Shown here: piece after piece, positions 986 to 16,925 of the stretch | Layout of the letters: the number at the start of each line of letters is the position of its first letter | How positions within the stretch are numbered: the first letter of the stretch is position 1 | Assembly (NCBI GenBank): GCA_045604705.1 | Contig: JAZUOO010000012.1 | Location: 11,429-75,428 of the forward strand | Source: Eubacteriales bacterium | GTDB lineage: Bacteria > Bacillota > Clostridia > Oscillospirales > CAG-382 | DNA: 64,000 nt | Direction: 5' to 3' | Made by a program: the position numbers and the translations under genes | The notes under the pieces: model-generated | What the model saw: only the letters and a program-made list of their open reading frames with translations | What the model was told of the DNA's origin: nothing | Database searches by the model: none

Positions 986-2854
986 GTGAAAAAGACAAAG
1001 AGACTGCTTTCCTTAATTCTTGCCGGTACAATACTCACTTCAACAGCAGTATTTACCGCAAATGCACAAACATCTGCACCTGAATATGCGATTGATTTCG
1101 TATATGATGTAGATTCAGAAATTGCAACAGCAACTATTTCCGTCGAGGGTGGTACGTACGGTGTTGGACATTTTGGTTTCACCTATAATGTCGAAGCACT
1201 TACACTCATTAATAAAGACGGCAATGAATTTGATGTTAATTCTGACAAGATGGCTGATGTTATTATAGGTTATTCAGATGCTGATGAATACGAGGTTATA
1301 ACTACTGAAGAAACAAACCTTATAGAAAATCTTATTGATACTGCAACTGGTGATGTTCTTTTTGGTTGGTATGTTACGGATAGATTTGAAGAAGGCGTTG
1401 ATAAAGGTTTCATTAATTCTGCCGACGAAAAGAAGATTATTGCTACCGTTAACTTTGGCTTAACAAGTGATATAGCGGAAAGCGATAATCCTGCTGCTGC
1501 TCTTAAGCAAATAATCGAAGACGAAAATAATAGTCTCATTAGTGTTTTTGATGGAGATATTGATGGACTTAAGGGCTGGAATGATATTTATGTAATCGGC
1601 GACCAAAAGGTTAACAAATATGTTAGTGATGCGGATGATATTCTTATTTCTGAAAGAATTTCTCCTGAAATTAACGATCTCGAAATTACCACAAAACCTA
1701 AAGAGATTACAGTTTCTTGGACTGTAGATGAAGAAGATGTTGAAAAAGTTGGTTATTATGAAGTTGTTATTACAGATCAGAGTGGTACTGTGATTGCAAC
1801 GGAAAGAATATATCCAAGCGGTTCTGAAACAGAATTTAATCTTACATTCAATAATGGTATTGAAACAAACAAAAAGTATAATGTCTCTGTAACAACAGTA
1901 ACTAATTCGGGTAACTCTGATTCTTCAGTAAGTGATACTGCAATTACAAGACCTAATTCTCCCGTCATTGTTGATCCGGGTATTGGTGGAGTATCATCTT
2001 CTTCCGGAGGTATGACAACAACGTATACCGTCACGTTTAATGCAGGTGAAGGTGTTATCCCCGACGGTCAGAAGTTTAAGTATACTGTTGCACTTAACGG
2101 TTATGTAAGTGGTTCTCCTGCTGTTATAGCTCCGGATGGTAAGGTGTTTGCAGGATGGTCTGTTGACGGTGTTACACTTATAAGCGTTGAGGTTTATAAG
2201 ATCACAAAGAATGTTACATTTAGAGCTATTTACGTAGATAAAACAGATGATATGCACAGTCCTTTCATTGTCGGTTATCCCGGTGGCGAAGTGAGAGCTG
2301 ATGCTCCTCTTACGAGAGCTGAAGCCGCAACAATAATTGCAAGGGCATCTGCAAACTTTGACAGTACAAAGATTTACACTGCTAACTTCTCTGACGTACC
2401 TGCCGGTCATTGGGCAGCTAACTATATAGCATTTGTATATGAGAATGATATTGTGACGGGTTACGACGATAATACATTCCATCCTGATAGTAATATCACA
2501 AGAGCGGAATTTGCAACAATTATGCAGAGATACCTTGATATTGAGCTTAACGAAGATGCGTCATTTATCGATGTTGGAAAAGATCACTGGGCAGTTTCAT
2601 ACATCGGAGCTTGCAAGGTTGCAGGACTTATCAACGGCTATGAAAATGGTGAGTTCAGACCATCTAATGAAATTACAAGAGCAGAAGCAGTAAAGATTCT
2701 TAACAGAGCTGCAGACAGAATTCCCAATTCGACAGCAATTGGTGCTTATATAAATGAAAAGGGTATTCCTTTCGCAGATCTTGATTTCAACAAGTGGTAT
2801 TTCTATGAAATCATGGAAGCTGCATTCCCGCACCTTGTATCCTACTACCACTAA
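986..2854 (+). CDS. secreted cell-surface protein: signal peptide, cohesin-like N-terminal module, FN3-like module, Listeria-Bacteroides (InlB B-type) repeat, three C-terminal SLH domains
   Basis: GTG start. N-terminal signal MKKTKRLLSLILAGTILTSTAVFTANA. TYTVTFNAGEG...GKVFAGWSVDG repeat. Three SLH-like units (FSDVPAGHWAANYIAF..., FIDVGKDHWAVSYIGAC..., each ending in ITRAEA/F). Confidence 0.75.
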   Translation: MKKTKRLLSLILAGTILTSTAVFTANAQTSAPEYAIDFVYDVDSEIATATISVEGGTYGVGHFGFTYNVEALTLINKDGNEFDVNSDKMADVIIGYSDADEYEVITTEETNLIENLIDTATGDVLFGWYVTDRFEEGVDKGFINSADEKKIIATVNFGLTSDIAESDNPAAALKQIIEDENNSLISVFDGDIDGLKGWNDIYVIGDQKVNKYVSDADDILISERISPEINDLEITTKPKEITVSWTVDEEDVEKVGYYEVVITDQSGTVIATERIYPSGSETEFNLTFNNGIETNKKYNVSVTTVTNSGNSDSSVSDTAITRPNSPVIVDPGIGGVSSSSGGMTTTYTVTFNAGEGVIPDGQKFKYTVALNGYVSGSPAVIAPDGKVFAGWSVDGVTLISVEVYKITKNVTFRAIYVDKTDDMHSPFIVGYPGGEVRADAPLTRAEAATIIARASANFDSTKIYTANFSDVPAGHWAANYIAFVYENDIVTGYDDNTFHPDSNITRAEFATIMQRYLDIELNEDASFIDVGKDHWAVSYIGACKVAGLINGYENGEFRPSNEITRAEAVKILNRAADRIPNSTAIGAYINEKGIPFADLDFNKWYFYEIMEAAFPHLVSYYH

Positions 2855-4483: not shown

Positions 4484-5026
4484 ATGAAATACTTAATAGC
4501 ATCAGATATTCATGGATCATCGTACTATTGCGAAAAGGTACTTGAAGCATTAAAGAATGAGAAAGCTGACAAAGTTCTTCTTTTAGGGGATATATTATAT
4601 CATGGTCCTCGCAATGATCTTCCTAAGGATTATGCACCTAAAAGAGTAATTGAAATGTTAAATCCTTTAAAAGAAAAAATCCTGTGTGTAAGAGGTAATT
4701 GTGATACAGAAGTTGACCAAATGGTGCTGGAGTTTCCGATTCTTGCTGATTATTGCCTTATTTCGCATGAGAATTCAATGATTTTTGCGACCCACGGACA
4801 TAAATTTAATACTTCAAATCTTCCACCGTTATCCAAAGGCGATATATTGCTTCATGGGCATACACACGTTCCGAAATGTGAGAAATGTGGTGATATCATG
4901 TATCTGAATCCGGGTTCTGTTTCTATTCCAAAAGAGGACAGCCATCATGGTTATATGACATTCGAAGACGGCACATTTATATGGAAAGATTTTGATGGAA
5001 ATAAAATAAATAGTTATATATTGTAA
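4484..5026 (+). CDS. yfcE: YfcE-family metallophosphoesterase (phosphodiesterase, MJ0936 family)
   Basis: DIHGS, GDILYHGPRN, GNCD, HGH and GHTH metallophosphoesterase motifs. 180 aa. Confidence 0.85.
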   Translation: MKYLIASDIHGSSYYCEKVLEALKNEKADKVLLLGDILYHGPRNDLPKDYAPKRVIEMLNPLKEKILCVRGNCDTEVDQMVLEFPILADYCLISHENSMIFATHGHKFNTSNLPPLSKGDILLHGHTHVPKCEKCGDIMYLNPGSVSIPKEDSHHGYMTFEDGTFIWKDFDGNKINSYIL

Positions 5027-5060
5027 TATTAATTATATCTAATAATTCCAAACATAAATA

Positions 5061-5094
5061 GGAGTCTCAAGCAAAGAGACTCCTTGAATTTTTA
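5061..5094. terminator. bidirectional hairpin between convergent genes
   Basis: GGAGTCTC-aagcaaa-GAGACTCC, with T-rich sequence on both sides. Confidence 0.55.
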
Positions 5095-6882
5095 TGCTAT
5101 AGGCTCAAAATCAGCCGCACCATGCTTACAAAGAGGACATACAATATCGTCCGGAAGATTTTCCCCCTCATAAACCCATCCGCAAACCTTGCAAACAAAG
5201 CCTTTTTTACCATCGGTTTCAGGCTTAGGTTTTACGTTTTCCTGGTAATAGGTATATGTCATTGTAGGGTTGCTGTTTAGTACTCTTGCCTCTGTTACGC
5301 TGCATATGAACATACCGTGTGTATCAAGATCGATATACCGCTCAACCTTAAGAGACATGAAAGAATTAATATATCTCGGGAGGAATGCGAGCCCGTTATC
5401 GGAACGAAGTGGTTCACAATCGGCAAATTTGTCAACGTTTCTTCCGCTTACAAAGCCAAAAGCTTCAAATACCTTGAACGGAGCTTCTGTCGAGAGACAG
5501 TTGACATTCATAATGCCTGTCTGCTTTATAATGTGATGTGAGTAGTTTTCTTTATTTATTGTAACGGCGATTCTGTTAGGTGTATTAGTAACCTGAGTAA
5601 CCGTATTAACTATGAGACCATTGTCTTTCTTGCCGTCGTTGGATGTAACAACATAGAGACCGTAACCTATATTAAAAAGTGCAGTAAGATCGTTTTTGTT
5701 GGCTGTTTCATCTCTCTGTGCAAGATATTCTTGACAAAGTTCATCTGCAAGAGCATTCAGTTGTGCGCGGCTTTCGTCATTAAGTGCTGACAAGATTTTT
5801 ACATTATTCTCCGCAAATGTAATGTTCTTGCAAGATTCGAGAAGACCTTTCATTACTTTCGCAGCAAGAGGTGCCCAGCTTCCGTTTTCAATAAGAGCAA
5901 CAGTTCTGTTTTTGAAGGCTCTCTCTGTCAGGTGATTTATGAATTCGCGCATAAACGGGAAAATTTCTGCGTTGTATGTTGTGGTTGCGAGAACGAGCTT
6001 GCTGTATTTAAATGCATCTGCAACCGCTTCGGACATATCACATCTTGCAAGATCGTAAATCTTGAGCTTCGGACATCCGTTAGCTTTGATTCTCTCACAG
6101 AGCTCGTTGACAGCCTTTTTGGTATTTCCATAGACAGAAGTGTATGCCACAACGATACCGTCTTCCTCAGGTAAATATGATGACCATGTATTGTAGAGTT
6201 CAAGATAATATCCAAGATTATCGGAAAGAACCGGACCGTGAAGAGGACAAATTTTTGCAATATCAAGAGTTGCTGCTTTTTTAAGAAGTGCTTGTACCTG
6301 TGCACCGTATTTTCCAACAATTCCGATATAATAACGTCTTGCTTCGTCAATCCAGGGTTCATCCGTGTCAAGAGCTCCGAATTTACCGAAACCATCTGCC
6401 GAGAAAAGAACCTTGTCTTTTACATCATATGTTACAATAACTTCCGGCCAATGAACCATAGGAGCTGTTACAAAAGTGAGGGTATGTGAACCAAGGGAAA
6501 GTGTATCTCCTTCGCCAACAACTATTCTTCTGTCGTCAAATGATGTTCCAAAGAAGCTCTGCATCATATTGAATGCTTTAGCTGAAGATACGATTGTACA
6601 ATTAGGATATGCTTTCGCAAATGTATTAATATTGGCAGAGTGGTCAGGCTCCATATGCTGAATTATAAGATAATTAGGTGCTTTTGATCCGAGGGTATTC
6701 TGAATATTATCGAGCCATTCGTGGGTAAACATCGCATCAACGGTGTCAATAATAGCAATCTTTTCATCAATAATAGCATAGGAATTATATGAAATACCGT
6801 TAGGTACGCGATACTGTCCTTCGAATAAGTCAATCTTTTTATCATTGACTCCGATATATTTGATGTCACTTGTGATATACAT
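5092..6882 (-). CDS. multidomain flavodiiron protein: metallo-beta-lactamase-like diiron domain, flavodoxin-like domain, flavin-reductase-like domain and C-terminal rubredoxin
   Basis: HMEPDH diiron motif. Flavodoxin-like VAYTSVYGNTKK. Flavin-reductase-like LYVVTSNDGKKDNGLIVNTV. C-terminal CKVCGWVY...CPLCKHG rubredoxin. Confidence 0.85.
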   Translation of the reverse strand: MYITSDIKYIGVNDKKIDLFEGQYRVPNGISYNSYAIIDEKIAIIDTVDAMFTHEWLDNIQNTLGSKAPNYLIIQHMEPDHSANINTFAKAYPNCTIVSSAKAFNMMQSFFGTSFDDRRIVVGEGDTLSLGSHTLTFVTAPMVHWPEVIVTYDVKDKVLFSADGFGKFGALDTDEPWIDEARRYYIGIVGKYGAQVQALLKKAATLDIAKICPLHGPVLSDNLGYYLELYNTWSSYLPEEDGIVVAYTSVYGNTKKAVNELCERIKANGCPKLKIYDLARCDMSEAVADAFKYSKLVLATTTYNAEIFPFMREFINHLTERAFKNRTVALIENGSWAPLAAKVMKGLLESCKNITFAENNVKILSALNDESRAQLNALADELCQEYLAQRDETANKNDLTALFNIGYGLYVVTSNDGKKDNGLIVNTVTQVTNTPNRIAVTINKENYSHHIIKQTGIMNVNCLSTEAPFKVFEAFGFVSGRNVDKFADCEPLRSDNGLAFLPRYINSFMSLKVERYIDLDTHGMFICSVTEARVLNSNPTMTYTYYQENVKPKPETDGKKGFVCKVCGWVYEGENLPDDIVCPLCKHGAADFEPIA

Positions 6883-7002
6883 TATTGTTTCTCCTCTTTT
6901 TGTGATTTAGATATAATATAACCATATCAAATTATAATATCCATCTGTGTAGAAATCTTGACAAAACATGTAAATAATAATATACGCCAAAATCGGTTTA
7001 TA

Positions 7003-8205
7003 TTACTCAAGCATTGATACTATATCCGGAAATATTTCTAGACTTCTTTTAAGTATACCATGCATATGTGCGATTGCAATACCGTAATTTACCATAGGAA
7101 CACCTGCTTCTTTTGCTCTGTCAATTCTTGACTGCATTTCTTTTTCATTAAGCATACAACCGCCACAATGAATACAAAGCTTATATTCATCGAGATTATC
7201 AGGATATTCTCCACCGCTTGTAAGTGTAATTTCCGGTTTTACACCGCTAAACTTTTCTATCCAATTGGGAATTTTTACACTGCCGATATCACCACATTGA
7301 CGATGATGTGTACAACCCTCGGAAATAAGAATTTTGTCGCCCGGCCGCAGCTTTGAAAGCTGTGAGGCACCTTTAATCAATTCCTTTAAATCACCTTTAT
7401 ATCTTGCAAATAATATTGAGAATGATGTAAGTGTAATGTCACTAGGTACAATTTTAGAAACCTTGCCGAATGCCTGAGAATCGGTTATAACCATTTTCGG
7501 TTTTTTTGCAAGGCTTCCCAATGTAGTTGCAAGCTCTGTATCTCTGCAACATACGGGTATACAGCCCGCTTCAAGAATATCTCGGATTGTCTGCTGCTGC
7601 GGAAGGATCAATCTTCCTTTGGGTGCTGCTTCGTCAATCGGAATGACGAGTATAACGACATCACCGGGAGTTAAAAGGTCGGCAACAATATATTTTGTGT
7701 TCTCAACAGTACCTTTAAATTTTCCGAGAGCTTCTTTCAATTCACTTATACCATATCCGCTTTTGGCGCTGACATAAATTGTATTTTCGGTATTAGCAGG
7801 TATATTTTCTAAAAGATCACTCTTGTTATATACTATAATATACGGTGTCTTTTTCTCGTCAAACATAGAGATTAATTTTTCATCCCAATCTGTTAAACCC
7901 GAAGTTGCATCACATACCAAAACTGCAATATCAGTACTTGTAAGAGTTTCTTTTGCTTTCTTTACTCTGAGTTCTCCCAAATCTCCCTCATCATCAATAC
8001 CGGGGGTATCAACTATTACAACAGGACCAAGCGGAAGAAGCTCCATTGCCTTTTTTACGGGGTCGGTTGTTGTGCCTTTATAGTTGGATACGACGGATAA
8101 TTGCTGACCGGTAACTGCATTGACCAGGCTTGATTTCCCTGCATTCCTTAAACCGAAAAATCCTATATGACGTCTTTCGGCACTTACTGTTTCATTTAAA
8201 CTCAT
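7003..8205 (-). CDS. hydF: [FeFe]-hydrogenase H-cluster maturation GTPase HydF
   Basis: P-loop GLRNAGKSSLVNA, DTPG and NKSD GTPase motifs. C-terminal cluster motif EGCTHH...LCIHCGGC (CxH...HCxxC). Confidence 0.9.
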   Translation of the reverse strand: MSLNETVSAERRHIGFFGLRNAGKSSLVNAVTGQQLSVVSNYKGTTTDPVKKAMELLPLGPVVIVDTPGIDDEGDLGELRVKKAKETLTSTDIAVLVCDATSGLTDWDEKLISMFDEKKTPYIIVYNKSDLLENIPANTENTIYVSAKSGYGISELKEALGKFKGTVENTKYIVADLLTPGDVVILVIPIDEAAPKGRLILPQQQTIRDILEAGCIPVCCRDTELATTLGSLAKKPKMVITDSQAFGKVSKIVPSDITLTSFSILFARYKGDLKELIKGASQLSKLRPGDKILISEGCTHHRQCGDIGSVKIPNWIEKFSGVKPEITLTSGGEYPDNLDEYKLCIHCGGCMLNEKEMQSRIDRAKEAGVPMVNYGIAIAHMHGILKRSLEIFPDIVSMLE

Positions 8206-8217
8206 AATATCCTCTTT

Positions 8218-9333
8218 TCAAAACGCCGATGCTTCGGATGCAGGTGCAAAAATCTGTTCTGCCTGTTCATTAGTTAGATTTACTCCGAATACGTCTTTGT
8301 AATATTTCTTTGTTTCTTCGATTATATCAATATCCTTGAATATTTCCGGATAAACTGTCTTTGCTATCCAAAAAAGTGTAACAGGGGTATCAACACCACA
8401 AGTATAGCTTCTGTACATTCCGAGCGGCATTTTGTATACTCTCTTGTTTTTGACAGCATCAATTTCAGCCCATTTTGGATCATCATAAAGTGTTTCGGGT
8501 TGTGCTGTAGTGAAATTTGTTATAAGGATACATTCCGGATTCCATGTGTAAATCTGCTCCATATTTACTGTTACGGAATTATCCTTATTGATTTCCTGTC
8601 CAACATTTTTTGCACCGACGGCATCTGCCCACCATTGACCGAAGAAGCGATTTCCGCTTGTTGCAATCATAGTGTCTGTATATTGATATAGGAAGAATAT
8701 GTCCTCTTTATCAGCTTCCGACAGATTTTTTGTGCGTTCGTTTATTTTGTCCATTACTTCTTTACTATAGTTATCAACGAGTTTTTTCTTTTCATTTTCG
8801 GGGAAAATCTGTGAAAGTAATTCAATCCAATTTTCAAGTGTTACGACAGCATCATAGTCCCATTTATTGACGGAAACCGCTATTGCGGGAATTCCTGCTT
8901 TCCTGCAAATCTCGCCATGCTGAACGTCCGCTGCATTATATAGAAAAATATCGGGATTTAGTTCAAGTAAAGCTTCAATGTTGAGATTTGCACCGTTAAT
9001 ATAGTCTGTTTCGGCGTTGAGTATTTCTGGATACAGTTCTCCGAGCAGGCTACTTTGTGCCGCTGTCATGCATTGTTCCGGCATACCGATTATTTTCTCG
9101 GCCGAATCAAAGAAAATTGCAACTACAGAAGGCAACGGATAAATTTTACCTATTGCAATTGTTTCGATATTTTTCGGAACTGTCACTTCTATTCCAAGGT
9201 GATCTGTGATTGTTATTGTATTATTGTCGGTATTATTTGTACCATTGCTTGATTCATCATTTTCGCAAGAATATAATGTTATGATAGCGATGCTTGCAAT
9301 CAACAGTAATAAAAGTTTAAATATTGATTTCAT
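8218..9333 (-). CDS. ABC transporter substrate-binding lipoprotein, iron-siderophore/cobalamin (FecB/BtuF-like) class
   Basis: Lipoprotein signal LLLLIASIAIITLYSC. Overall resemblance to periplasmic binding protein 2 family members. Sits in an operon with a FecCD-type permease. Confidence 0.8.
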   Translation of the reverse strand: MKSIFKLLLLLIASIAIITLYSCENDESSNGTNNTDNNTITITDHLGIEVTVPKNIETIAIGKIYPLPSVVAIFFDSAEKIIGMPEQCMTAAQSSLLGELYPEILNAETDYINGANLNIEALLELNPDIFLYNAADVQHGEICRKAGIPAIAVSVNKWDYDAVVTLENWIELLSQIFPENEKKKLVDNYSKEVMDKINERTKNLSEADKEDIFFLYQYTDTMIATSGNRFFGQWWADAVGAKNVGQEINKDNSVTVNMEQIYTWNPECILITNFTTAQPETLYDDPKWAEIDAVKNKRVYKMPLGMYRSYTCGVDTPVTLFWIAKTVYPEIFKDIDIIEETKKYYKDVFGVNLTNEQAEQIFAPASEASAF

Positions 9334-9345
9334 TTTAATTCTCCG

Positions 9346-10485
9346 CTATTTCAATTTGTCGGTAATATATTTAATACTGCCTATAAGATTCGGAATGTTG
9401 TCACGATAAATTCTTCCGGAAAAAGCCTCGTGAGGAAGTTCTATAAAATTTGTTTTATCCGAGCAAATCGGTTTGTACATCGGGTCGGCAATGATATTTT
9501 TCGCATCTTTTATTATTGGTATGATTTCATCCTCAAATACAGCATTTACACATGATACAGAAAGAAGAGCTTGTGGTGTGTTGACAGCTGAAATTACTTT
9601 TGCTTCGATTCCTGCTTCGTTTCGTATAGCATGTGCAAGAGATAGAGATGTGACGCTTTCTCCGATTATAATGACATTTTTCGTATCGTTGGCTTGAACG
9701 GAAATCATATCTTCTGAAGTTATCATACATCGGTTTATGTCGTTAACAAGCTGCTCAGTAAGTTTTTTGCCATAGGGTACACCGATAACATATGGTATTC
9801 CAAATTTTTTTTTCATTATCTTGGCACATTCAAGTCCGCACGAAGATACAACAAGGTTAGCTTTTGCGTTTCCTGCATTCTCTATTTCGGTAAAAGAACT
9901 TTCCATAGCCATAACAGAATTGATTTTAATGCCGCATTTTTCAAATGTATGCTTCATAGAAGCTACACTGCCGTTTACGGAAAAATCAAGCGGAGTCACT
10001 CCAAGAATATTTATTGAAAAATCACTGTTGGTTTCTGTTTTTTTGCACATTCTGCACGTGAATTCAGAGAAAGCCATTGAGGCACCGTGAATATATGATT
10101 GCATACCGGCTGTTTCAAATCCGAATGTTGGTATTCCACATCTGTTTTCAATCTCTTTGGCAACTGAATTTAAATCACAACCGGTCAAGTAAGGAATAGG
10201 TGATCCCGCAATTGCTATGAAACGGGGATTAAGTTCTTTGGCAGCCTGTACGGTGTCTGTGATTAATTTTTCATCATTTCCGAATATAGCATCTTTTTCC
10301 GTGAGCCCCGATATAAAAACAAGACTGTCCGTGTGATACCATCTAGGTTCATCGTGAGTACTGTATGTTGAATTACAACCCGACGGATCGTGCATTACAA
10401 TTAGCCCTCCAAGCTCAAAAAGGGCAGAGCATACTCCGCTCGTATCACCTGTATAGGTCGAAATTATTCTTGCAGTCTGTTTCAT
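9346..10485 (-). CDS. nitrogenase component-1-type oxidoreductase, NifK/NifN/BchB-like subunit
   Basis: VMHDPSGCNS and IAIAGSPIPYLTGCD motifs resemble the HGxxGC and cluster-ligand regions of the NifD/K/E/N family. Start chosen at ATG 10485, which forms an ATGA overlap with the upstream stop; the track ORF starts at 10500. Confidence 0.75.
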   Translation of the reverse strand: MKQTARIISTYTGDTSGVCSALFELGGLIVMHDPSGCNSTYSTHDEPRWYHTDSLVFISGLTEKDAIFGNDEKLITDTVQAAKELNPRFIAIAGSPIPYLTGCDLNSVAKEIENRCGIPTFGFETAGMQSYIHGASMAFSEFTCRMCKKTETNSDFSINILGVTPLDFSVNGSVASMKHTFEKCGIKINSVMAMESSFTEIENAGNAKANLVVSSCGLECAKIMKKKFGIPYVIGVPYGKKLTEQLVNDINRCMITSEDMISVQANDTKNVIIIGESVTSLSLAHAIRNEAGIEAKVISAVNTPQALLSVSCVNAVFEDEIIPIIKDAKNIIADPMYKPICSDKTNFIELPHEAFSGRIYRDNIPNLIGSIKYITDKLK

Positions 10486-11816
10486 GTGCAACCACAGCAC
10501 CCCATTCCTTTAATTTGTATAAGACTCTTTGCATCCTTAGGGGATAAATATGCCTCTTTAAGATCTTTACATAACTTTATAATCGCTTCAAAACCGTAAT
10601 ATCCTCCGTTCTCGACGATGTTTACAAAATAGTCAGTTCCACTAAAAAAAGCGGCTTTTTGTCCGATTGCAACTGTTTTAACTTCGGAGCATCTTGGTTC
10701 AACTCTCATGCATGTATGTACAGTAGGATACAATAGTAATTCAGGATAATTCTCTTTAAGATATATAAAATCCTTTTCTTCCTCAAAAGTAAATGTGTCA
10801 GCGTAGATCTTTGTAACATTAAATCCATTCACAAGAAGAAGTTTTGCAAGGCTAAGCGGTCTTGTGAAAGCTGTGTAATCAATGGTAATCGGAGTATCAC
10901 CGATCAAATTTTTGACTTTCGTGATTTCCTCGTTGCACTTGTACTTTAATTCTGAAAAATCCGGAATATCTATGTTAAGATTATCACATAAAGCTCTATA
11001 ATTTTCAGTGATTTCATCACAATCAAAACTGAAAGGAAGATGCATATGATTCTGATTATGTATTTTTTGCAAGCTTTTACCAGCCGCCATTGCAGATGGA
11101 AATGTTGTGATACAGTGAGATGCTTTTGAAAGCTTAAGATAATCGTCAAAGCATTTACAATCCTGTATTTCAAGCAGAGAAAATCCATTGTCATTCAGTA
11201 ATTTAACAATCTCACTGTCTTTATCAAGAGGTAAATCATTGCCTACGATACTAATCACATTTGGTGATAAATCCGTCTTATCAAGTAAACTGTATAAACG
11301 CTGCCTCATTTTCGCATCAGGTGTCATACCGCTTTTTCTCATAATGGGATTCATATAGCAATCGGTAAATTTTATGTCAGGGAATCTTTCTCTTAACTCT
11401 TTGTAACAAATTGAAAGATCGCATCCCAGGAAGTGGTGTACACAGCTCGTATAGACAAGAATAGCTCTCGGCTTCTTTGGGAGCTTATTTATTATATCGG
11501 TAACACCCTCAATTATCAGTTCTTCATTATCGCCTGTAATGACATTGCTTTCATTTACAGTAATCGTTGAGAATCTTTCACTCATTCCAAGTTCTGCCGC
11601 AGTAAGAACAACACCACGTAAACACCCTTGTGCACAGACAAATATTTGATGTGCTTCCGGAATCAACATACCGGTATGAACTATATTCCAAGTCCCTCTT
11701 GCAGGTGCTGAAAACTCAAGACCTGATCTGAACGGTGAGGGGTATGATGCATCTTTGAATTTCACTGCAGCAATGCATTTGTTATCTCGGTCTCCGAGTT
11801 TTTTTATTGTATTCAC
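10482..11816 (-). CDS. nitrogenase component-1-type oxidoreductase, NifD/NifE/BchN-like subunit
   Basis: FVCAQGCLRG and LVYTSCVHHFLGCD Cys motifs. 444 aa. GTG start one nt after the NifH-like stop. Cys-rich C-terminus KGMGCCGCT. Confidence 0.75.
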   Translation of the reverse strand: MNTIKKLGDRDNKCIAAVKFKDASYPSPFRSGLEFSAPARGTWNIVHTGMLIPEAHQIFVCAQGCLRGVVLTAAELGMSERFSTITVNESNVITGDNEELIIEGVTDIINKLPKKPRAILVYTSCVHHFLGCDLSICYKELRERFPDIKFTDCYMNPIMRKSGMTPDAKMRQRLYSLLDKTDLSPNVISIVGNDLPLDKDSEIVKLLNDNGFSLLEIQDCKCFDDYLKLSKASHCITTFPSAMAAGKSLQKIHNQNHMHLPFSFDCDEITENYRALCDNLNIDIPDFSELKYKCNEEITKVKNLIGDTPITIDYTAFTRPLSLAKLLLVNGFNVTKIYADTFTFEEEKDFIYLKENYPELLLYPTVHTCMRVEPRCSEVKTVAIGQKAAFFSGTDYFVNIVENGGYYGFEAIIKLCKDLKEAYLSPKDAKSLIQIKGMGCCGCT

Positions 11817-11817
11817 A

Positions 11818-12576
11818 TTACACCCCCTCGCATTTTTTGATTATATTCTTAGCGAGCAGCCTGTATTCACTCGCCATATCACTTTTTGGAAATGCTTCAA
11901 CTACTGTTTTAGAGAGCTCTTCTGCTTCCTGCACTGTTTCACTTCGTGAAAGTGTTCCTGTTATTTCACTTTTTATGTCGCTTGCAAGCTCCGTAACCTT
12001 TTCAAATTCATTTTTAACGTTGCGCTTGTTAAGTATTATTCCACCGAATTTAGCATACCCTCTGCTTTTGAAATTGTCGACTGCCATCGCAATATTTGCC
12101 GCGGCATAAATAGACATATTTTCACCGCTTGTAACAACAAAAACATATTCGGCGTAACCCGGTCGCATTGGCATTGTAAAACCGCCGCAAACGACATCTC
12201 CCAGTACATCGAAAAGAACTATATCAGGTTCATATGTCTCGTAAACACCTTTTTCAGAAAGTTTTTCCAATGCGGCAATTATTCCTCTGCCTGCACAACC
12301 AGTTCCAGGGGCGGGACCGCCGGCTTCGGCACAAATTACCCCCTTATATCCGATTCTGACCATTTCGGAAAGTTCAAAATCATTTCCTTTTTCCTTGACA
12401 AGATCGAGTATGGTTGTCATTTTTTCTTTACCGCGAAGAAGAACAGTAGAATCGGCTTTGGGATCACAACCGATTTGCAGAACTTTATAGCCATCATCGG
12501 CAAGTGCAGCCGCAATATTTGCAACGGTTGTCGATTTACCAATTCCACCTTTTCCGTAAATTGCTATTTTAATCAT
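11818..12576 (-). CDS. NifH/BchL/CfbC-family ATP-dependent reductase (nitrogenase iron protein-like)
   Basis: IAIYGKGGIGKSTT P-loop. EAGGPAPGTGCAGRG and DVLGDVVCGGFTMP, the equivalents of both NifH 4Fe-4S Cys ligands. Confidence 0.9.
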   Translation of the reverse strand: MIKIAIYGKGGIGKSTTVANIAAALADDGYKVLQIGCDPKADSTVLLRGKEKMTTILDLVKEKGNDFELSEMVRIGYKGVICAEAGGPAPGTGCAGRGIIAALEKLSEKGVYETYEPDIVLFDVLGDVVCGGFTMPMRPGYAEYVFVVTSGENMSIYAAANIAMAVDNFKSRGYAKFGGIILNKRNVKNEFEKVTELASDIKSEITGTLSRSETVQEAEELSKTVVEAFPKSDMASEYRLLAKNIIKKCEGV

Positions 12577-12609
12577 AATTTCAGATTCCTTTCAAGGCTA
12601 TGCGTAAAA

Positions 12610-13662
12610 TTAATTCTCTCTATAATCGCCTCGAGTGCAAACTACTTCGTACCCGATTTCATCCATCTGCTTCCGAAGAATTCTTATACCGGTTTCTGCA
12701 TCAAATTCTGTCCCTACTTTATTATCGTAAAGCATGTATTTTTTCCTTACGCTCATTGGCGAAAGATTCGGCATAACAACATTGCATCCTGCAAGTACAC
12801 CAAGCTGTCTGCCGTTTCCGCTTGCTGTTCCCAAAGCAGTGGTGGAGGGGAGAAGCACATTCGGAAGCATTATGCGTGTCAGACTTATTAAAAATAATGT
12901 AAGCTCAATGCTCCCGGGATTATAATTACGAAACGGTGTCTCTTTGTGCGGCAAGAATGGGCCGAGTCCGACCATGTGAGGTTTGAATACTTGCATAAAT
13001 ATCATGTCTTCAGCAATGTCTTTATTTGTTTGAAAAGGTACGCCGACCATAAAGCCACATCCGGTCTGATAGCCAATTTCTTTGAGGTTTTTCAGGCATT
13101 CGATTCTTTCATAGTGTTTTTGTATGCTCGGGTGTATTTTGCCATACAGTTTCGGATTTGCAGCTTCGTGCCTTATGAGGTATCTGTCCGCTCCTGCAGC
13201 ATAAAGTCTTTGGTATGATTCTCTGCTTCGTTCGCCGACCGATAATGTTACCGCACAATTCGGAAATTCCTTTTTTATAGATTCTACAATGTCACACAGT
13301 ATTTCTTCACTGAAATGTCCATCCTCACCGCCCTGAAGTACGAAAGTTCTGAAGCCGTGAGTATATCCGTCTTTCGCACATTCCAAAATATCTTCCTTTG
13401 ATAATCGGTATCTTGAAACACAAGTGTTGGATTTCCTTATACCGCAGTAATAGCAGTCGTTTTTACAGATATTTGAAAATTCAATTATACCCCTGAAGAA
13501 TATTTTTTTGCCGAATTTCGCTATTGTCAATTCTCTCGCAATATTTTCAGCATATCGTCTTTCAGATTCCGTATAGTTGTTAAGAATGTGAACCCATTCA
13601 TTTTTGTCAAGACTTTTATTTTGATTTAATTTATCTATTAGTTCTTTTACCATGAGCATCAT
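12610..13662 (-). CDS. hydE: [FeFe]-hydrogenase H-cluster radical SAM maturase HydE
   Basis: IIEFSNICKNDCYYCGIR (CX3CX2C), VLQGGED, GADRYLIRHEAANP, GLGPFLPHKETP, LTRIMLP...PSTTALGT and NVVMPNLSP closely follow my recollection of Thermotoga HydE. Start set at ATG 13662, 2 nt after the upstream stop; the track start at 13722 overlaps the upstream gene. Confidence 0.85.
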   Translation of the reverse strand: MMLMVKELIDKLNQNKSLDKNEWVHILNNYTESERRYAENIARELTIAKFGKKIFFRGIIEFSNICKNDCYYCGIRKSNTCVSRYRLSKEDILECAKDGYTHGFRTFVLQGGEDGHFSEEILCDIVESIKKEFPNCAVTLSVGERSRESYQRLYAAGADRYLIRHEAANPKLYGKIHPSIQKHYERIECLKNLKEIGYQTGCGFMVGVPFQTNKDIAEDMIFMQVFKPHMVGLGPFLPHKETPFRNYNPGSIELTLFLISLTRIMLPNVLLPSTTALGTASGNGRQLGVLAGCNVVMPNLSPMSVRKKYMLYDNKVGTEFDAETGIRILRKQMDEIGYEVVCTRGDYREN

Positions 13663-13663
13663 C

Positions 13664-14725
13664 CTATTTTTTATCAGCAATTGTCGCTTTGACACTAACA
13701 TCGGGCAGAATGGAAAGTTCATGTCTCAGCGATTCAATTTCATTTACCGGAGCATCAATTGTTACATTTATTATGTATACTCCACCTTTGTTGTATGGCA
13801 TTCCCATTCTTCCTATTATACAGTTTGAGTATTTAGAGAATATATCATTGATTTTACCGCTCAAATCGTAGTCGGAAAATATAGCGGAAATAACGGCTAT
13901 CGCATTTTTGTTTGAGTATGCAATATCATCAATCTTGTTTTCAGCGAGTCGAACCGGCAAGATGCTTTTATAAATGTTGCCCGTGGTTTCTATTTCGCTG
14001 ATTACAGTATTAACTCCAAAAGCATTCCTTATTATTTCTTCGGTTACAATTTTTTGTGTGTCTCCGAAAATAGTTTTACCACCCTTATGAAGTATAAGAG
14101 ACTTATTTGCTCTTGTCAGAGCGTGTTCCGGGTAGTGCGTGTTGAAAATTACACACATTCCCCTTGAAGCAAGAGCGTTGAGTGTGTCGAGTACTATAAG
14201 TTGATTTCTGAAGTCCAGATTTGATTCCGGTTCATCAAGTATAAGAAGCTTCGGTTCGGAGACAAGCGCCCTCGCTATTAAAACCATTTGGAATTCGCCG
14301 CCACTCATTTTATTGCATTTCTTTTCAAGAAGGTGAGATATCCCCAGTGACTTTGCAATATCGGCAGCCTTTTGATAATCCTTTTCCGACGGCGATGAAA
14401 ATATACCAATCTTTGATGCCATTCCCAGAAGTATCATTTCCTGTGCACTCAGCGAGGAAGAATTTCCCTTTGCCTGAGGAACATATGAAACCTTACTCCA
14501 TAGTGCTTTTGATGGCAACTTATAAATATCAGTTCCGTCAAGGTAATTTTTTCCATCGTTGAATTTCAGGAATCCCATAATACATCTGAGCATTGTAGTT
14601 TTACCGGCACCATTTGGTCCAAGAATTGCAATAATATCTCCTCCGTTTGCCTGGAAATTTAAATTGTCAATTATTTTCTTGTTTTTATCGTACGAGAAAG
14701 AAGCGTTTTCAATTTTTAAAAGCAT
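13664..14725 (-). CDS. ABC transporter ATP-binding protein (FecE/FepC-like) with a C-terminal TM1266-like (NikR-C/ACT-like) domain
   Basis: Walker A GPNGAGKTT, signature MSGGEFQ, Walker B LLILDEPESNLD. The last ~90 aa (NAIAVISAIF...IIGRMGMPYNKGGVYIINVTIDAP...LPDVSVKATI) match the IIGRMGIPY-type motif of the putative iron-only hydrogenase system regulator family. Confidence 0.85.
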   Translation of the reverse strand: MLLKIENASFSYDKNKKIIDNLNFQANGGDIIAILGPNGAGKTTMLRCIMGFLKFNDGKNYLDGTDIYKLPSKALWSKVSYVPQAKGNSSSLSAQEMILLGMASKIGIFSSPSEKDYQKAADIAKSLGISHLLEKKCNKMSGGEFQMVLIARALVSEPKLLILDEPESNLDFRNQLIVLDTLNALASRGMCVIFNTHYPEHALTRANKSLILHKGGKTIFGDTQKIVTEEIIRNAFGVNTVISEIETTGNIYKSILPVRLAENKIDDIAYSNKNAIAVISAIFSDYDLSGKINDIFSKYSNCIIGRMGMPYNKGGVYIINVTIDAPVNEIESLRHELSILPDVSVKATIADKK

Positions 14726-14748
14726 ATTACCATTCCTTTCGGAATTAT

Positions 14749-15771
14749 TTAGTGCCCGAAGCCCTGAGTTTTTCTCATGAGAATAATGAAGAAAGGTGCT
14801 CCGATTATAGCAGTTAATACAGATAGAGGAAGCCCTGCGGAAGTAATTGTTCTTGCAAGTGTATCTACAATAACCATGAATGCAGAACCGAATAAAGCAC
14901 AGGCGGGAAGTATTTTCACATGATTGTTACCAAATTTCATTCTGCAGATATGTGGAACAAGAAGACCAACCCAGCCAACCTGACCACTCATTGATACACA
15001 TGATGCCGTAATCATTGTTGCACATATAATGACAATTGTTCGAAGTAGCCTCACATTAACACCGCTTGAAATGATTTCATCATCGCTAAGTGGCAGAAGA
15101 TTCAACCTCCAGCGAAGCAACAGCAGAACAAATATACCGATAAGAATTACCGGAATGCCTAGCGAAAGACTTTCGTAGCTTGCCGAATTAAAACTTCCCA
15201 TCAGCCAATATTCAATGGCAGGTAATTGACTTTCTGTATCGGCAGTATATTTTACAAGTGTAATCAAAGCCGAAAATAACGATCCGATCATTATACCGCC
15301 AAGCACGACTCCGCCTAGTCCCTGTTTGTTTTTTCCGGTACCTGCAATCACTGTCAGAATTACAGCTGTAAGCCCCATAACGAACGACATAATTTGTATT
15401 CCCGGTAGATTAAACCCGAACAGTAACGAGAGTGCGGCACCGAATGATGATCCTGACGCCACTCCCAATGTGTCCGGTGTTGCAAGAGGATTTGAAAACA
15501 GACTCTGAAAAACACAGCCCGAAACTGATAACCCCGCACCTACGAGCAGAGCAAGAAGTATTCTCGGTAATCTGTTATGCCAAAGTATATATTCTATTCT
15601 TGCGTTTTCCTCAACGGAATCTGTGAATTTTGAAATAATTGATGATAAAATTTCATCGGGTGTAACTTTAAATGTTCCCGTTCCCAAGGCTATTATAGAT
15701 ACTATAATTGGCAAGACAATCAGTATCGAGATCCAAAATAACGAAAGCTTTCCACGATTTTTCTTTTTCAT
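14749..15771 (-). CDS. FecCD/BtuC-family ABC transporter permease
   Basis: 340 aa, about 9-10 TM segments, LPRILLALLVGAGLSVSG and GLLVPHICR motifs typical of FecCD permeases. AAGGAG RBS. Confidence 0.9.
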   Translation of the reverse strand: MKKKNRGKLSLFWISILIVLPIIVSIIALGTGTFKVTPDEILSSIISKFTDSVEENARIEYILWHNRLPRILLALLVGAGLSVSGCVFQSLFSNPLATPDTLGVASGSSFGAALSLLFGFNLPGIQIMSFVMGLTAVILTVIAGTGKNKQGLGGVVLGGIMIGSLFSALITLVKYTADTESQLPAIEYWLMGSFNSASYESLSLGIPVILIGIFVLLLLRWRLNLLPLSDDEIISSGVNVRLLRTIVIICATMITASCVSMSGQVGWVGLLVPHICRMKFGNNHVKILPACALFGSAFMVIVDTLARTITSAGLPLSVLTAIIGAPFFIILMRKTQGFGH

Positions 15772-15945
15772 TTCAGGCTCCTTAAAAAAATAACCGAACT
15801 CCGCATGGGCAGAGTACGGTCATCACAGTAATATTATAACATATCTATATGCTGTTTATTTTTCTGTAATTTAAACCGAAACCTTTCACCCGGATATATA
15901 TCTTCATGTCAGGCAGTAGTTTGTATTTTGATTATACCATAGGGT
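15772..15945 (-). promoter_or_regulatory. operon leader: extended -10 promoter(s), about 130-nt untranslated leader and an intrinsic terminator abutting the RBS (candidate riboswitch or attenuator, class not recognised)
   Basis: Minus strand: TGGTATAAT (15939..15931). A second TGTTATAAT (15841..15833). Hairpin ACCGUACUCUGCCCAUGCGGAGUUCGGU (15820..15793), then UAUUUUUUU, then AAGGAG and the ATG at 15771. Confidence 0.5.
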
Positions 15946-15991
15946 TGTTAAAAAAGTAACAGAATACTATTTCCTATCTGTAAAATAGGAA

Positions 15992-16450
15992 TCACGCGTT
16001 ATAAGAAAATGTCATGTTTGTCCAATTATCGAGAACAGCCAAATATCTTTCAGCTTCATAGTGAGCAAGACTCAAATCAAGCGTTCTGTAGTTTCCGCAT
16101 TCAATTTCAGAATTACCGAAAACTTCGCCATTGTAATCAATAATCTCTTTTAATACTTTCTTTATCTCCTCAAATACGCGCACATGATCGGCATTTCTGA
16201 TAAGAAGATAAAAACCCGTCTGACAACCCATGGGACCGAAATAGATTACATCATTAGAAATAGGGGAGTTCCTTATAAATGTCGCAAACATATGCTCCAT
16301 TGTATGCATCGCACCGACTCCGATATAATCACCCGAATTGGGTTTTCTCATTCGTAAATCGTAAGTAGTAATGTCGTCGTCTATCCTTGAAATATACATT
16401 CCTTCAGCTATTTTTGTATGATCAACAGTAAAACTTGTAATTTTTTTCAT
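15992..16450 (-). CDS. luxS: S-ribosylhomocysteine lyase LuxS
   Basis: HTMEHMFATFIRN (HxxEH metal site), GPMGCQTGFY. 152 aa. Confidence 0.95.
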   Translation of the reverse strand: MKKITSFTVDHTKIAEGMYISRIDDDITTYDLRMRKPNSGDYIGVGAMHTMEHMFATFIRNSPISNDVIYFGPMGCQTGFYLLIRNADHVRVFEEIKKVLKEIIDYNGEVFGNSEIECGNYRTLDLSLAHYEAERYLAVLDNWTNMTFSYNA

Positions 16451-16463
16451 TGTGGTTCATCCT

Positions 16464-16925
16464 TTACTTTATTCCGAGGTATTCCAAAACTTCATAAACA
16501 TGACCGTCTGCTTTAACTTTTTCGAAAATTTTTTCAACGTTTCCGTCTTCATTTATTATATATGTTGTTCTTACAATCCCCATTGAGACCTTGCCGCACA
16601 TTTTCTTTTCCTGCCATACGCCGTAATCCTCTATAACATCCTTTTCGGGATTGGAAAGAAGTATAAAAGGAAGTGAATATTTCTGCGTAAACTTTGCATG
16701 AGAATTTGCACTGTCTTTATTAATTCCCATAACTACAACATTATTTTTCTCAAACTTTTCAAAATGTTCCGCAAATCCCAAAGCCTGTTTCGTGCACCCC
16801 GCCGTTGAATCCTTGGGGTAAAAATACAGCACCACTTTCTTGCCGCGGAAATCACTAAGTGTATATTCTTTTCCGTCTGCGGCGATAAGCTTAAAATCGG
16901 GAGCTTTTGTGTTTACACTTATCAT
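16464..16925 (-). CDS. bcp: thioredoxin-dependent peroxiredoxin Bcp
   Basis: VVLYFYPKDSTAGCTKQA peroxidatic Cys motif. 153 aa. Confidence 0.9.
   Translation of the reverse strand: MISVNTKAPDFKLIAADGKEYTLSDFRGKKVVLYFYPKDSTAGCTKQALGFAEHFEKFEKNNVVVMGINKDSANSHAKFTQKYSLPFILLSNPEKDVIEDYGVWQEKKMCGKVSMGIVRTTYIINEDGNVEKIFEKVKADGHVYEVLEYLGIK

Follow-up and report, generated by a model that had tools for sequence, protein, structure and literature searches.

The stretch of DNA analysed here (the window; 64,000 nucleotides from the genome of a Eubacteriales bacterium) encodes an ABC importer ATPase that ends in a genuine TM1266-family domain with the NikR-C-like, ferredoxin-like fold, and the gene lies in an operon that combines the importer with nitrogenase-like proteins and the hydrogenase maturases HydE and HydF. 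The features of the fused protein are as follows:

13664..14725, minus strand: gene of the ABC importer ATPase that has the TM1266-like domain at its C-terminus, 353 residues plus stop (open reading frame, translation, Pfam and NCBIfam matches)
13940..14725, minus strand: nucleotide-binding domain (NBD), residues 1-262 (PF00005 ABC_tran, PDB and Foldseek matches)
13907..13945, minus strand: linker, residues ~261-273 (low model confidence; length survey of relatives)
13673..13906, minus strand: TM1266-like domain, residues 274-351 (PF21699, TIGR03959, domain model, Foldseek)
13793..13813, minus strand: family motif G305-R-M-G-M-P-Y311 at the end of b2 (conservation in fused and free copies)

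The 353-residue protein is a complete ATPase subunit of the sort found in type-II ABC importers (BtuCD/FecCD/MolBC). PF00005 (ABC_tran) matches residues 20-166 with 106 bits, and all of the ATPase motifs can be read in the translation, namely, the Walker A GPNGAGKT, the signature MSGGE, the Walker B LLILDEPES and the H-loop His197. According to the secondary structure of the full-length model, the NBD terminates in a beta-hairpin (residues 238-260). The best PDB sequence match of the NBD is HI1470/MolC (2nq2; E = 3e-41, 35% identity), on which the NBD model aligns in Foldseek with a TM-score of 0.91 normalised to the target and an rmsd of 2.3 Å; BtuD and HmuV are matched as well. The type-II assignment agrees with the partners encoded in the same operon, a FecCD-type permease (PF01032) and a class-III binding protein (Peripla_BP_2, PF01497). 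The imported substrate cannot be named, given that the best NCBIfam matches of the ATPase to named equivalogs (FecE, BtuD, heme, F420-0 and others) lie far under the respective cut-offs (TIGR03873, 155.5 bits versus a cut-off of 372.4).

The first-pass annotation had placed a TM1266-like domain at 13667-13920, that is, residues ~269-353, and both the position and the identity of the domain are borne out. PF21699 (TM1266-like) matches residues 276-347 of the whole protein with 58.3 bits (cut-off 27), spanning profile positions 2-74 of 74, and the last 88 residues alone score 62 bits against PF21699 and 71.5 bits against TIGR03959 (hyd_TM1266; cut-off 60.8), the accession that the first-pass annotation had given, correctly, for this family. 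The two motifs originally quoted are present as IIGRMGMPY (residues 303-311) and VSVKAT (residues 343-348). Compared with the PDB as a single sequence (phmmer), the tail gave no meaningful match; a profile built from 15 such domains matches TM1266 of Thermotoga maritima (PDB 2nzc; E = 3.5e-13). As the NBD dominated the Foldseek matches of the full-length model, which were uninformative on the tail, a domain-only AlphaFold model was used instead (pLDDT 93.5; fold b1-a1-b2-b3-a2-b4). Its best match is again 2nzc (E = 1e-8, 1.1e-8 for 2nzc_A; TM 0.87-0.91, rmsd 1.3 Å, 80 columns), so that the structural comparison with the Thermotoga protein proposed at the outset supports the assignment; NikR C-domains rank next, followed by ACT domains, including that of RelA.

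The tail resembles T. maritima TM1266 (2nzc; PF21699; TIGR03959, 'iron-only hydrogenase system putative regulator') in family membership by both HMMs, in fold and in its company next to hydE. Unlike that protein, it is tethered to an ABC ATPase rather than being a free protein of ~80 residues, and it belongs to a separate clade; free TM1266 copies in the class sample are open frames of 81-166 residues. To our knowledge, no function has been assigned to the TM1266 family, one member of which has had a solved structure since 2006. The tail is joined to the NBD by a non-conserved linker that is predicted to be disordered (pLDDT < 50 at residues 264-270 of the full-length model) and that measures 13-36 residues (median 17) in 66 relatives, two regex mis-hits having been left out of the survey. 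That the extension might be a generic FecE-family tail, as had been considered, is ruled out: the closest orthologous ATPases stop before it, with nine close relatives in sister nif-like/ABC clusters ending at query residues 257-267 (around residue 260). The TM1266 tail was added to a transporter that already existed.

The other elements of the operon, in the order of transcription, are the following:

15876..15916, minus strand: 5' leader motif, conserved, ahead of the permease gene and composed of CTGAC, hairpin and GRAAG (alignment of 26 leaders)
14749..15771, minus strand: FecCD/BtuC-type permease, first gene of the operon (PF01032, 281 bits)
12610..13661, minus strand: HydE radical-SAM maturase (TIGR03956, 520.7 bits, cut-off 254.6)
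11818..12576, minus strand: NifH-like Fe protein (PF00142, 293.7 bits)
10482..11816, minus strand: NifD/E-like component-1 subunit, very divergent (PF00148, 49 bits)
9346..10500, minus strand: NifK/N/E-like component-1 subunit (PF00148, 126 bits)
8218..9333, minus strand: substrate-binding lipoprotein (Peripla_BP_2) of the importer (PF01497, 67 bits)
7003..8205, minus strand: HydF GTPase maturase, last gene of the operon (TIGR03918, 560 bits, cut-off 325.6)

The physical link between the importer and the Hyd maturation system, previously deduced from the fusion, is evident from the gene order: the probable start of HydE (MMLMVKEL, read directly in the sequence) follows the ATPase stop codon by 1-2 nt, hydF is the final gene of the operon, and all 80 of the surveyed loci show the arrangement. 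The HydE and HydF of the window are the only ones in the genome. The NifH-like Fe protein scores under the equivalog cut-offs for both NifH and CfbC, and the NifD/E-like subunit has no sequence match in the PDB. Among solved structures, the binding protein is closest to 4ovk, followed by the nickel-binding protein of H. pylori (4ino/4ls3) and, after it, HI_1472 (3psa). Downstream of the leader motif come a hairpin resembling a terminator and a U-run, and a scan against Rfam matched no family. A covariance model (R1) gives 30.1 bits on the window leader, a copy that was in its training set; it also finds untrained leader copies in loci L066-L068 and ahead of three free TM1266 genes of the canonical type (L025, L045, L032).

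The survey of the fusion suggested in the first-pass annotation recovered it in at least 232 species genomes, all of gut or rumen Bacillota, with HydE, NifH-like proteins and free TM1266 as neighbours; one of the carriers, at locus L139, is a cultured Clostridium sp. isolate. The genes are usually arranged as free TM1266, FecCD, ATPase::TM1266, HydE, NifH/D/K-like, binding protein and HydF. Sufficient downstream sequence was available for 68 of the 80 surveyed loci; a NifH-like gene lies downstream of the fusion in 67 of these. HydE follows the fusion in 60 loci, and of the 67 loci with room for a free TM1266 gene upstream, 60 have one there. TM1266-family genes head hydrogenase-maturase operons, and proteins of the family are encoded in ~60% of the Clostridia genomes sampled (244/399). 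The source genome, too, has a free TM1266 gene, located outside the window operon, after plsY at positions 1338-1628 of another contig (C54), and devoid of such a leader. Two features of these genomes had escaped the first-pass annotation: most of the operons also include a free TM1266 gene, and most of the fusion-bearing genomes lack HydG.

In the source genome (96.5% complete), where hydE adjoins the ATPase gene and hydF lies within the operon, no hydG was found, and tblastn searches of the whole genome yielded no HypF, HypD, HypE or HydG; the Hyp-containing variant of the cluster is, hence, not present in it. HydG was found in 8 of 50 fusion-bearing genomes, as opposed to 242 of 399 in the class sample, whereas [FeFe] hydrogenases are encoded in 49 of the 50. 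Strict mutual exclusion of the operon and HydG is rejected by these eight genomes. HydG is the normal source of the Fe(CO)2(CN) synthon, and HydE, HydF and HydG are treated in the field as the complete maturation set. An operon with a nitrogenase-like enzyme and an importer in place of the usual hydG neighbour, found mostly in HydG-less [FeFe]-hydrogenase genomes, bears on the completeness of this set, and concerns abundant H2-producing bacteria of the gut and rumen. It is conceivable, albeit rather improbable, that the operon allows the [FeFe]-hydrogenase active site to be made independently of HydG: the importer would take in a small complex of iron or another metal, or else a finished precursor shed by neighbouring gut microbes, the nif-like enzyme together with HydE and HydF would process it, and TM1266, free or tethered, would recognise an organometallic or metal-chelate intermediate, either gating import or handing the cargo on. 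If true, this would provide the first function for the TM1266 family and a case of salvage of a hydrogenase cofactor precursor.

Searches of the literature on TM1266, on nitrogenase-like proteins with HydE/HydF and on HydG-less maturation yielded no paper on the fusion or the operon beyond one study (Dos Santos et al., 2012; PMC3464626). The parts of that study considered here report nitrogenase-like (NifHEN-like) genes co-located with ABC transporters in Firmicutes and, in Coprococcus catus and other Firmicutes, beside hydrogenase maturation proteins, and suggest metallocluster assembly as the role of such clusters; in the same parts, TM1266, the fusion and HydG are not mentioned, and no experiments on these clusters are described (Dos Santos et al., 2012).

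In the phylogenetic tree, 84 fused domains all fall on one side of a branch with support of 100/98.8. The fused domains form a single clade, which fits a single origin of the fusion. As a paralogue of the free TM1266 protein, the fused domain is both old and distinct, and it is limited to one operon family. Comparison of the 84 fused with 96 free copies shows that N293, G305-Y311 (GRMGxPY), D324 and K346 are invariant or nearly so, the sole difference within the motif being position 309, which is Met in the fused copies and Ile in the free ones. These residues are a candidate ligand or interface site. By contrast, six positions are conserved in the free copies only: R275, G335 and G338 without exception, and S320, D328 and K336 nearly so (85-93%). 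All six are missing from the window copy, which also differs from T. maritima TM1266 in coming from a genome in which no hydG was found. Such a pattern, with the common core kept and the residues specific to free copies lost, is what a rewired sensor module should show.

The covalent tie to a transporter ATPase amounts to a natural experiment, and speaks for the domain being a module that reads a signal or binds cargo at the membrane. Our preferred but tentative reading derives from the analogy with MetN (C2 domain) and ModC and from the residue conservation: the tail may be a cytoplasmic ligand sensor that throttles import by trans-inhibition. As an ABC importer has two ATPase subunits, there would be two tails, and these would pair beneath the NBDs in the way TM1266 and NikR-C domains pair. 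A cytoplasmic small molecule might bind the family-invariant site (N293, R306, M307, Y311, D324, K346), and the ligand-loaded tails would then hinder closure of the ATPase dimer, so that uptake would be throttled once the imported compound, or a downstream intermediate of H-cluster assembly, suffices. The free TM1266 protein, with its additional invariant residues, would read the same signal for another output, probably control of operon expression. The nearest fold neighbours, NikR-C and the RelA ACT domain, are ligand-binding regulatory domains and count in favour of the sensor reading. So do fusions of the TM1266-like domain to a radical-SAM protein (P0139) and to a GNAT acetyltransferase (P0138), given that ACT-like allosteric modules typically occur fused to varied enzymes.

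The C-terminal domains of MetN (ferredoxin-like C2/NIL) and ModC (TOBE) mediate trans-inhibition, and the window protein is comparable to the ATPases of MetNI and ModBC in carrying a small regulatory-type domain at its C-terminus. With MetN C2, it further shares the ferredoxin-like b-a-b-b-a-b module, and the full-length model aligns with MetN (3tui) over ~375 columns. However, the window tail has no NIL or TOBE match in Pfam and no sequence relationship to these domains was found; MetN C2 is not among the top 50 Foldseek matches of the tail alone; and the host importer is of type II (FecCD/BtuCD kind), not type I, with a long, disordered linker. This long and variable linker is harder to reconcile with a rigid clamp on the NBDs than is the short connection of MetN, and would suit a tether equally. 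We know of regulatory tails described for type-I importers and of none for type-II importers. MolBC-A (HI1470/71/72), BtuCD-F, HmuUV and BhuUV resemble the window system in the NBD, the FecCD-type permease and the Peripla_BP_2 binding protein, but the top structural matches (2nq2, 4dbl, 4g1u, 5b58) are chains of 248-258 residues that align with the NBD only and have no C-terminal regulatory domain. The tail would be, as far as we know, the first C-terminal regulatory domain on a type-II (BtuCD/FecCD-like) importer.

Given that a free copy almost always co-exists with the fused one, the tail might act by binding the free TM1266 protein rather than a small molecule. A specific form of this idea, less probable than the sensor reading, is that the tail is a docking site: the two tethered domains would make up a NikR-like tetramer with a dimer of the free protein, and the transporter would sequester or release this free regulator depending on transport state or ligand, as MalK holds MalT, such that import would not itself be gated but would be coupled to operon expression. 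Docking would be consistent with the free gene being the first of the same operon in most loci and present elsewhere in the source genome, with the identity of the core/interface motif in the two forms, with a flexible linker that suits a tether, with the tetrameric state of the nearest fold relatives (the NikR C-domains; 2nzc has four chains) and with the conserved leader RNA preceding these operons. However, the window operon itself has no free copy, the one of this genome lying leaderless on the other contig, and we know of no nucleic-acid-binding domain or activity in TM1266.

A similarly modest chance is given to cargo hand-off, in which the TM1266 domains would be small carriers of labile iron or organometallic species and the tethered copy would catch the imported compound at the cytoplasmic exit of the permease and pass it to HydE, the nif-like proteins or HydF. 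The importer is linked directly to cofactor maturases by the operon, most fusion-bearing genomes have [FeFe] hydrogenases and no HydG, the flexible tether fits, and a metal complex of negative charge could be bound by the invariant Arg, Lys, Met and Tyr. On the other hand, proteins that carry Fe or Fe-S species usually do so through cysteines, and the 84 fused and 96 free copies have no conserved Cys in this domain. HydG does co-occur with the operon in some genomes, and TM1266 is not an obligatory carrier, as maturation in E. coli needs no more than HydE, HydF and HydG.

Far less probable than either docking or cargo hand-off is a NikR-like metal sensor, in which Ni(II) or a different transition metal would occupy a NikR-type site in the tail and the tail would then stop the uptake of metal. 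The likeness to NikR postulated in the first-pass annotation holds for the fold, with the NikR C-terminal nickel-binding domain matched second-best (TM 0.81-0.88, rmsd 1.5-1.9 Å), and both are small oligomerising regulatory domains; furthermore, the nickel-binding protein of H. pylori and HI_1472 are among the solved structures related to the binding protein, and the conserved motif sits at the end of b2, which, by secondary-structure register, would be the place of the NikR His-x-His. The likeness does not extend to the sequence, where no similarity is detectable (no Pfam NikR_C match at E <= 0.01; no NikR in the PDB found with the domain profile), or to the metal ligands: no Cys is conserved, and the one frequent His of the domain (position 297; 83-88%) is Ser in the window protein. 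A nickel site in the manner of NikR is rejected on these residues, none of the NikR-type His/Cys ligands being conserved. Unlike NikR, the tail also has no ribbon-helix-helix DNA-binding domain attached.

Finally, that the tail is an artefact or inert, through a frameshift, an assembly join or decay of a neighbouring TM1266 gene, has a negligible chance and is refuted by conservation, as 232 species genomes or more carry the fusion as a single uninterrupted frame, there are seven invariant core residues, the fused domains fall into one clade and the model is confident (pLDDT 93.5), even though the branches of the fused copies are longer than those of the free ones. The faster evolution that these branches record in the tree could reflect relaxed constraint on the fused domains, and counts against the sensor reading too.

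The importer ATPase of the hyd/nif-like operon (7003-15771, minus strand) is a two-domain protein, encoded as follows:

13664-14725, minus strand: ABC importer ATPase with a TM1266-like tail, an open reading frame of 353 residues

Residues 1-262 form a complete ABC nucleotide-binding domain (NBD; PF00005, 106 bits), the translation of which contains the Walker A motif GPNGAGKT, the signature MSGGE, the Walker B motif LLILDEPES and the H-loop His197. HI1470/MolC of the type-II importer MolBC is the top structural and sequence match of the NBD, and other near matches include BtuD, HmuV and BhuV. In the full-length AlphaFold model (pLDDT 85.9, from an alignment of 26 sequences), the NBD terminates in a β-hairpin (residues 238-260) and is connected to the tail by a low-confidence linker (pLDDT below 50 at residues 264-270), which is predicted to be disordered; among 66 relatives, this long linker measures 13-36 residues. 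The tail itself is modelled as a compact β-α-β-β-α-β fold (strands 274-283, 303-311, 316-326 and 343-351; helices 286-298 and 327-338).

The first-pass annotation had described this tail as a TM1266/NikR-C-like domain located at 13667-13920, and both the description and the coordinates are correct. Residues 276-347 match PF21699 (TM1266-like; profile positions 2-74 of 74, 58 bits, cut-off 27), and the last 88 residues alone score 71.5 bits against TIGR03959 (cut-off 60.8). When the domain-only model (85 sequences, pLDDT 93.5) was searched with Foldseek, TM1266 (PDB 2nzc) was the top match (E = 1e-8, TM 0.87-0.91, rmsd 1.3 Å), followed by many NikR C-terminal domains (TM 0.81-0.88) and then by the ACT domain of a RelA-type enzyme. 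At the sequence level a profile was needed: the single tail sequence did not retrieve 2nzc from the PDB, and the tail profile recovered it at E = 3.5e-13. Given that 2nzc is both the best Foldseek match and recovered by the sequence profile, the assignment holds, with the likeness to NikR-C being one of fold only. The motifs to which the annotation had pointed are likewise present in the protein (IIGRMGMPY and VSVKAT). By HMM, fold and motif, though not by architecture, the fused domain belongs to the TM1266 family.

A search with the whole fused protein against 399 genomes of the same class yielded full-length matches in four (G000, the genome of the window, and G256, G365 and G369). In nine others, the closest orthologous ATPase covers only query residues 1 to ~257-267, and a generic tail can therefore be rejected. 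All 12 matches from other genomes, except L077 on a truncated contig, are accompanied by NifH/D/K-like genes, a binding protein and a FecCD permease. The presence of tailless orthologues in such nif-like/ABC clusters means that a transporter already belonging to them acquired the tail. A word-based search recovered the PF00005 plus PF21699 architecture in 29 protein clusters at 90% identity, and when 185,579 species, each represented by a single genome, were scanned for the pattern, 232 stretches were found to encode the fusion. The best 80 of these 232 all derive from Bacillota, known from metagenomes of gut, rumen or sludge and from a few isolates, and include Oscillospiraceae, Lachnospiraceae, Ruminococcus, Blautia, Christensenellales, Intestinibacter and others. 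ATPase::TM1266 is a real, conserved domain fusion.

Mapping of the window's nine proteins onto the best 80 of the 232 loci revealed a canonical gene order, namely, free TM1266, FecCD, ATPase::TM1266, HydE, NifH-like, NifD-like, NifK-like, binding protein and HydF, with the following frequencies among these 80:

NifH-like gene downstream: 67 of the 68 loci whose sequence continues for 2.2 kb or more downstream, the exception being L137
HydE directly downstream: 60 of 80 loci
HydF: 35 of the 46 loci that extend far enough
Free TM1266 gene upstream: 60 of the 67 loci with sufficient upstream sequence

L137 (= L022, JAZQPR010000082.1) is a bare FecCD-ATPase-binding-protein transporter, with nif-like and hyd genes not nearby; it is unique in this respect among the best 80 of the 232 loci, and its tail forms the longest branch in the TM1266 tree. 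The operon in the window has no free TM1266 copy, and the one encoded by G000 lies directly after plsY on another contig:

Contig C54 (L001), 1338-1628, plus strand: free TM1266 gene of G000, not in a hyd operon

This gene starts ~20 nt after the plsY-like gene, downstream of the 3′ end of der, and is followed on the same strand by an unannotated 120-aa ORF and, as named by sequence reading, a Fur-family-like regulator and a ZnuA-like binding protein. Within the window's operon, the C-terminus of the NifD-like subunit is Cys-rich (GMGCCGCT; 10482-10512, minus strand), and the stop codon overlaps the start of the next gene.

A maximum-likelihood tree was computed for 180 TM1266 domains, comprising 84 fused ones, 62 free copies from fused-type operons, 31 copies from ordinary hyd operons and 3 belonging to a Hyp-containing variant. 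In it, a branch supported at 100/98.8 has all 84 fused domains on the same side, and their branches are longer than those of the free copies. This grouping fits a single origin of the fusion, or of the duplication behind it. The two kinds of free copies are interspersed, indicating that the free gene heading fused-type operons is an ordinary TM1266. Column-wise comparison showed that fused and free copies share a set of invariant or almost invariant residues, A277, N293, G305, R306, M307, G308, P310, Y311, I319, D324, L340 and K346, whereas position 309 is Met in fused and Ile in free copies. In the free copies alone, R275, G335 and G338 do not vary, and S320, D328 and K336 are almost fixed (85-93%). 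No Cys is conserved in either form, and the only frequent His of the domain, at position 297, is Ser in the window's protein. Judging from these columns, the pattern fits a common ligand or interface core combined with an output surface needed by the free protein alone. An exhaustive search with the tail over 1.84 billion representatives returned 530 clusters at E ≤ 0.001, most of them proteins of 80-150 residues; among the best 150 of these, the ABC fusion is the most frequent longer form. Single representatives of two other architectures are P0139, in which an N-terminal TM1266 domain precedes a radical-SAM domain and which is probably a truncated TM1266-HydE, and P0138, a GNAT acetyltransferase with a C-terminal TM1266 domain. 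Fusion to varied enzymes is typical of small ACT-like allosteric modules.

Our literature search found no paper on the ATPase::TM1266 fusion or on TM1266 function, and the fusion is apparently an undescribed variant of a known theme, the regulatory tail on an importer ATPase. By analogy with the MetN C2 domain and ModC, the two tails of an ATPase dimer might pair beneath the NBDs and use the invariant site to bind a ligand from the cytoplasm; when loaded, they would restrain ATPase closure, resulting in trans-inhibition. We tentatively give this scheme slightly less than an even chance. The C2 domain of MetN is also a ferredoxin-like module, but neither it nor the tail of ModC is homologous to the fused TM1266, which, unlike them, sits on a type-II importer; we know of no regulatory tail described on importers of that type. 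Two rival readings remain alive because the linker is long and disordered and the free copy nearly always co-occurs. The tail could dock or sequester free TM1266, which we consider unlikely albeit worth entertaining, or could pass an imported, labile metal species on to the maturases, a role that also appears rather improbable. A NikR-like nickel sensor is far less credible still, as the lack of conserved Cys and the Ser in place of His297 argue against a NikR-type nickel site, and an artefactual fusion is excluded.

The genome of the window encodes HydE (520 bits) and HydF (560 bits), far over the equivalog cut-offs, each in a single copy within the operon, and has three matches to Fe_hyd_lg_C, the [FeFe]-hydrogenase large-subunit domain. 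In this 96.5%-complete assembly, HydG was found neither by HMM nor by tblastn, and HypF, HypD and HypE were not found by tblastn; HydG is likewise absent from the five other carrier genomes examined. In the class sample, HydG scores over the cut-off in 242 of 399 genomes, but in none of the 12 with a close orthologue of the window's NifD-like protein. In genus g74, the nif-like genes occur without HydG in four genomes, and HydG occurs without the nif-like genes in three. Of 50 further genomes carrying the fusion, eight encode HydG, it is missing in 42, and 49 contain an [FeFe]-hydrogenase domain. Overall, the association of the fusion/nif-like operon with HydG absence is strong but not exclusive, and is a correlation, with the statistics limited by MAG incompleteness and genome relatedness. 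A variant cluster without the importer is exemplified by genome G212:

L160 (G212:C2:6000-25999), 4691-16064: variant cluster without importer; also L158, L159 and L161-L163

It consists of genes for a NifH-like protein, a distant NifD/K-like pair (a second nif-like set), HypF, HypD, HypE, free TM1266, NifD-like and NifK-like proteins and HydF, with HydE in addition in L163; HydG was not found in the genomes of L158-L163. Dos Santos et al. (2012; PMC3464626) describe nitrogenase-like genes of Firmicutes that neighbour ABC transporters and genes for hydrogenase maturation, and propose that they take part in metallocluster assembly. In a 2026 review of nitrogenase-like systems, several groups are classed as uncharacterised, and a search by term returned no mention of HydE or hydrogenase maturation. 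The chief use of the fusion is as a way into the function of TM1266 and into a maturation route that may be independent of HydG.

The nearest solved relatives of the importer's binding protein (8218-9333, minus strand) are 4ovk, the nickel-binding protein of H. pylori (4ino/4ls3) and HI_1472 (3psa). Together with the proximity of the NBD to HI1470, these relatives make the transporter more similar to importers of small metal complexes or oxyanions than to siderophore systems, hinting at such a substrate rather than a bulky siderophore. The operon is preceded by a putative regulatory element:

15876-15916, minus strand: conserved leader motif (CTGAC, a short covarying hairpin, GRAAG), upstream of the permease gene

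A terminator-like hairpin follows near 15790-15830. The motif matches no Rfam family. The covariance model (41 positions, 20 leaders), in which the window's copy scores 30 bits as part of the training set, detected untrained copies before three other fused-type operons and before three ordinary free TM1266 genes (L025, E = 2e-4; L045, E = 1e-3; L032, E = 0.05), which supports a predicted common control of fused-type and ordinary hyd operons. Farther upstream, sequence reading indicates a LuxS-looking gene with an HTMEH motif (15992-16450, minus strand) and, beyond it, a peroxiredoxin-like gene (16464-16925).
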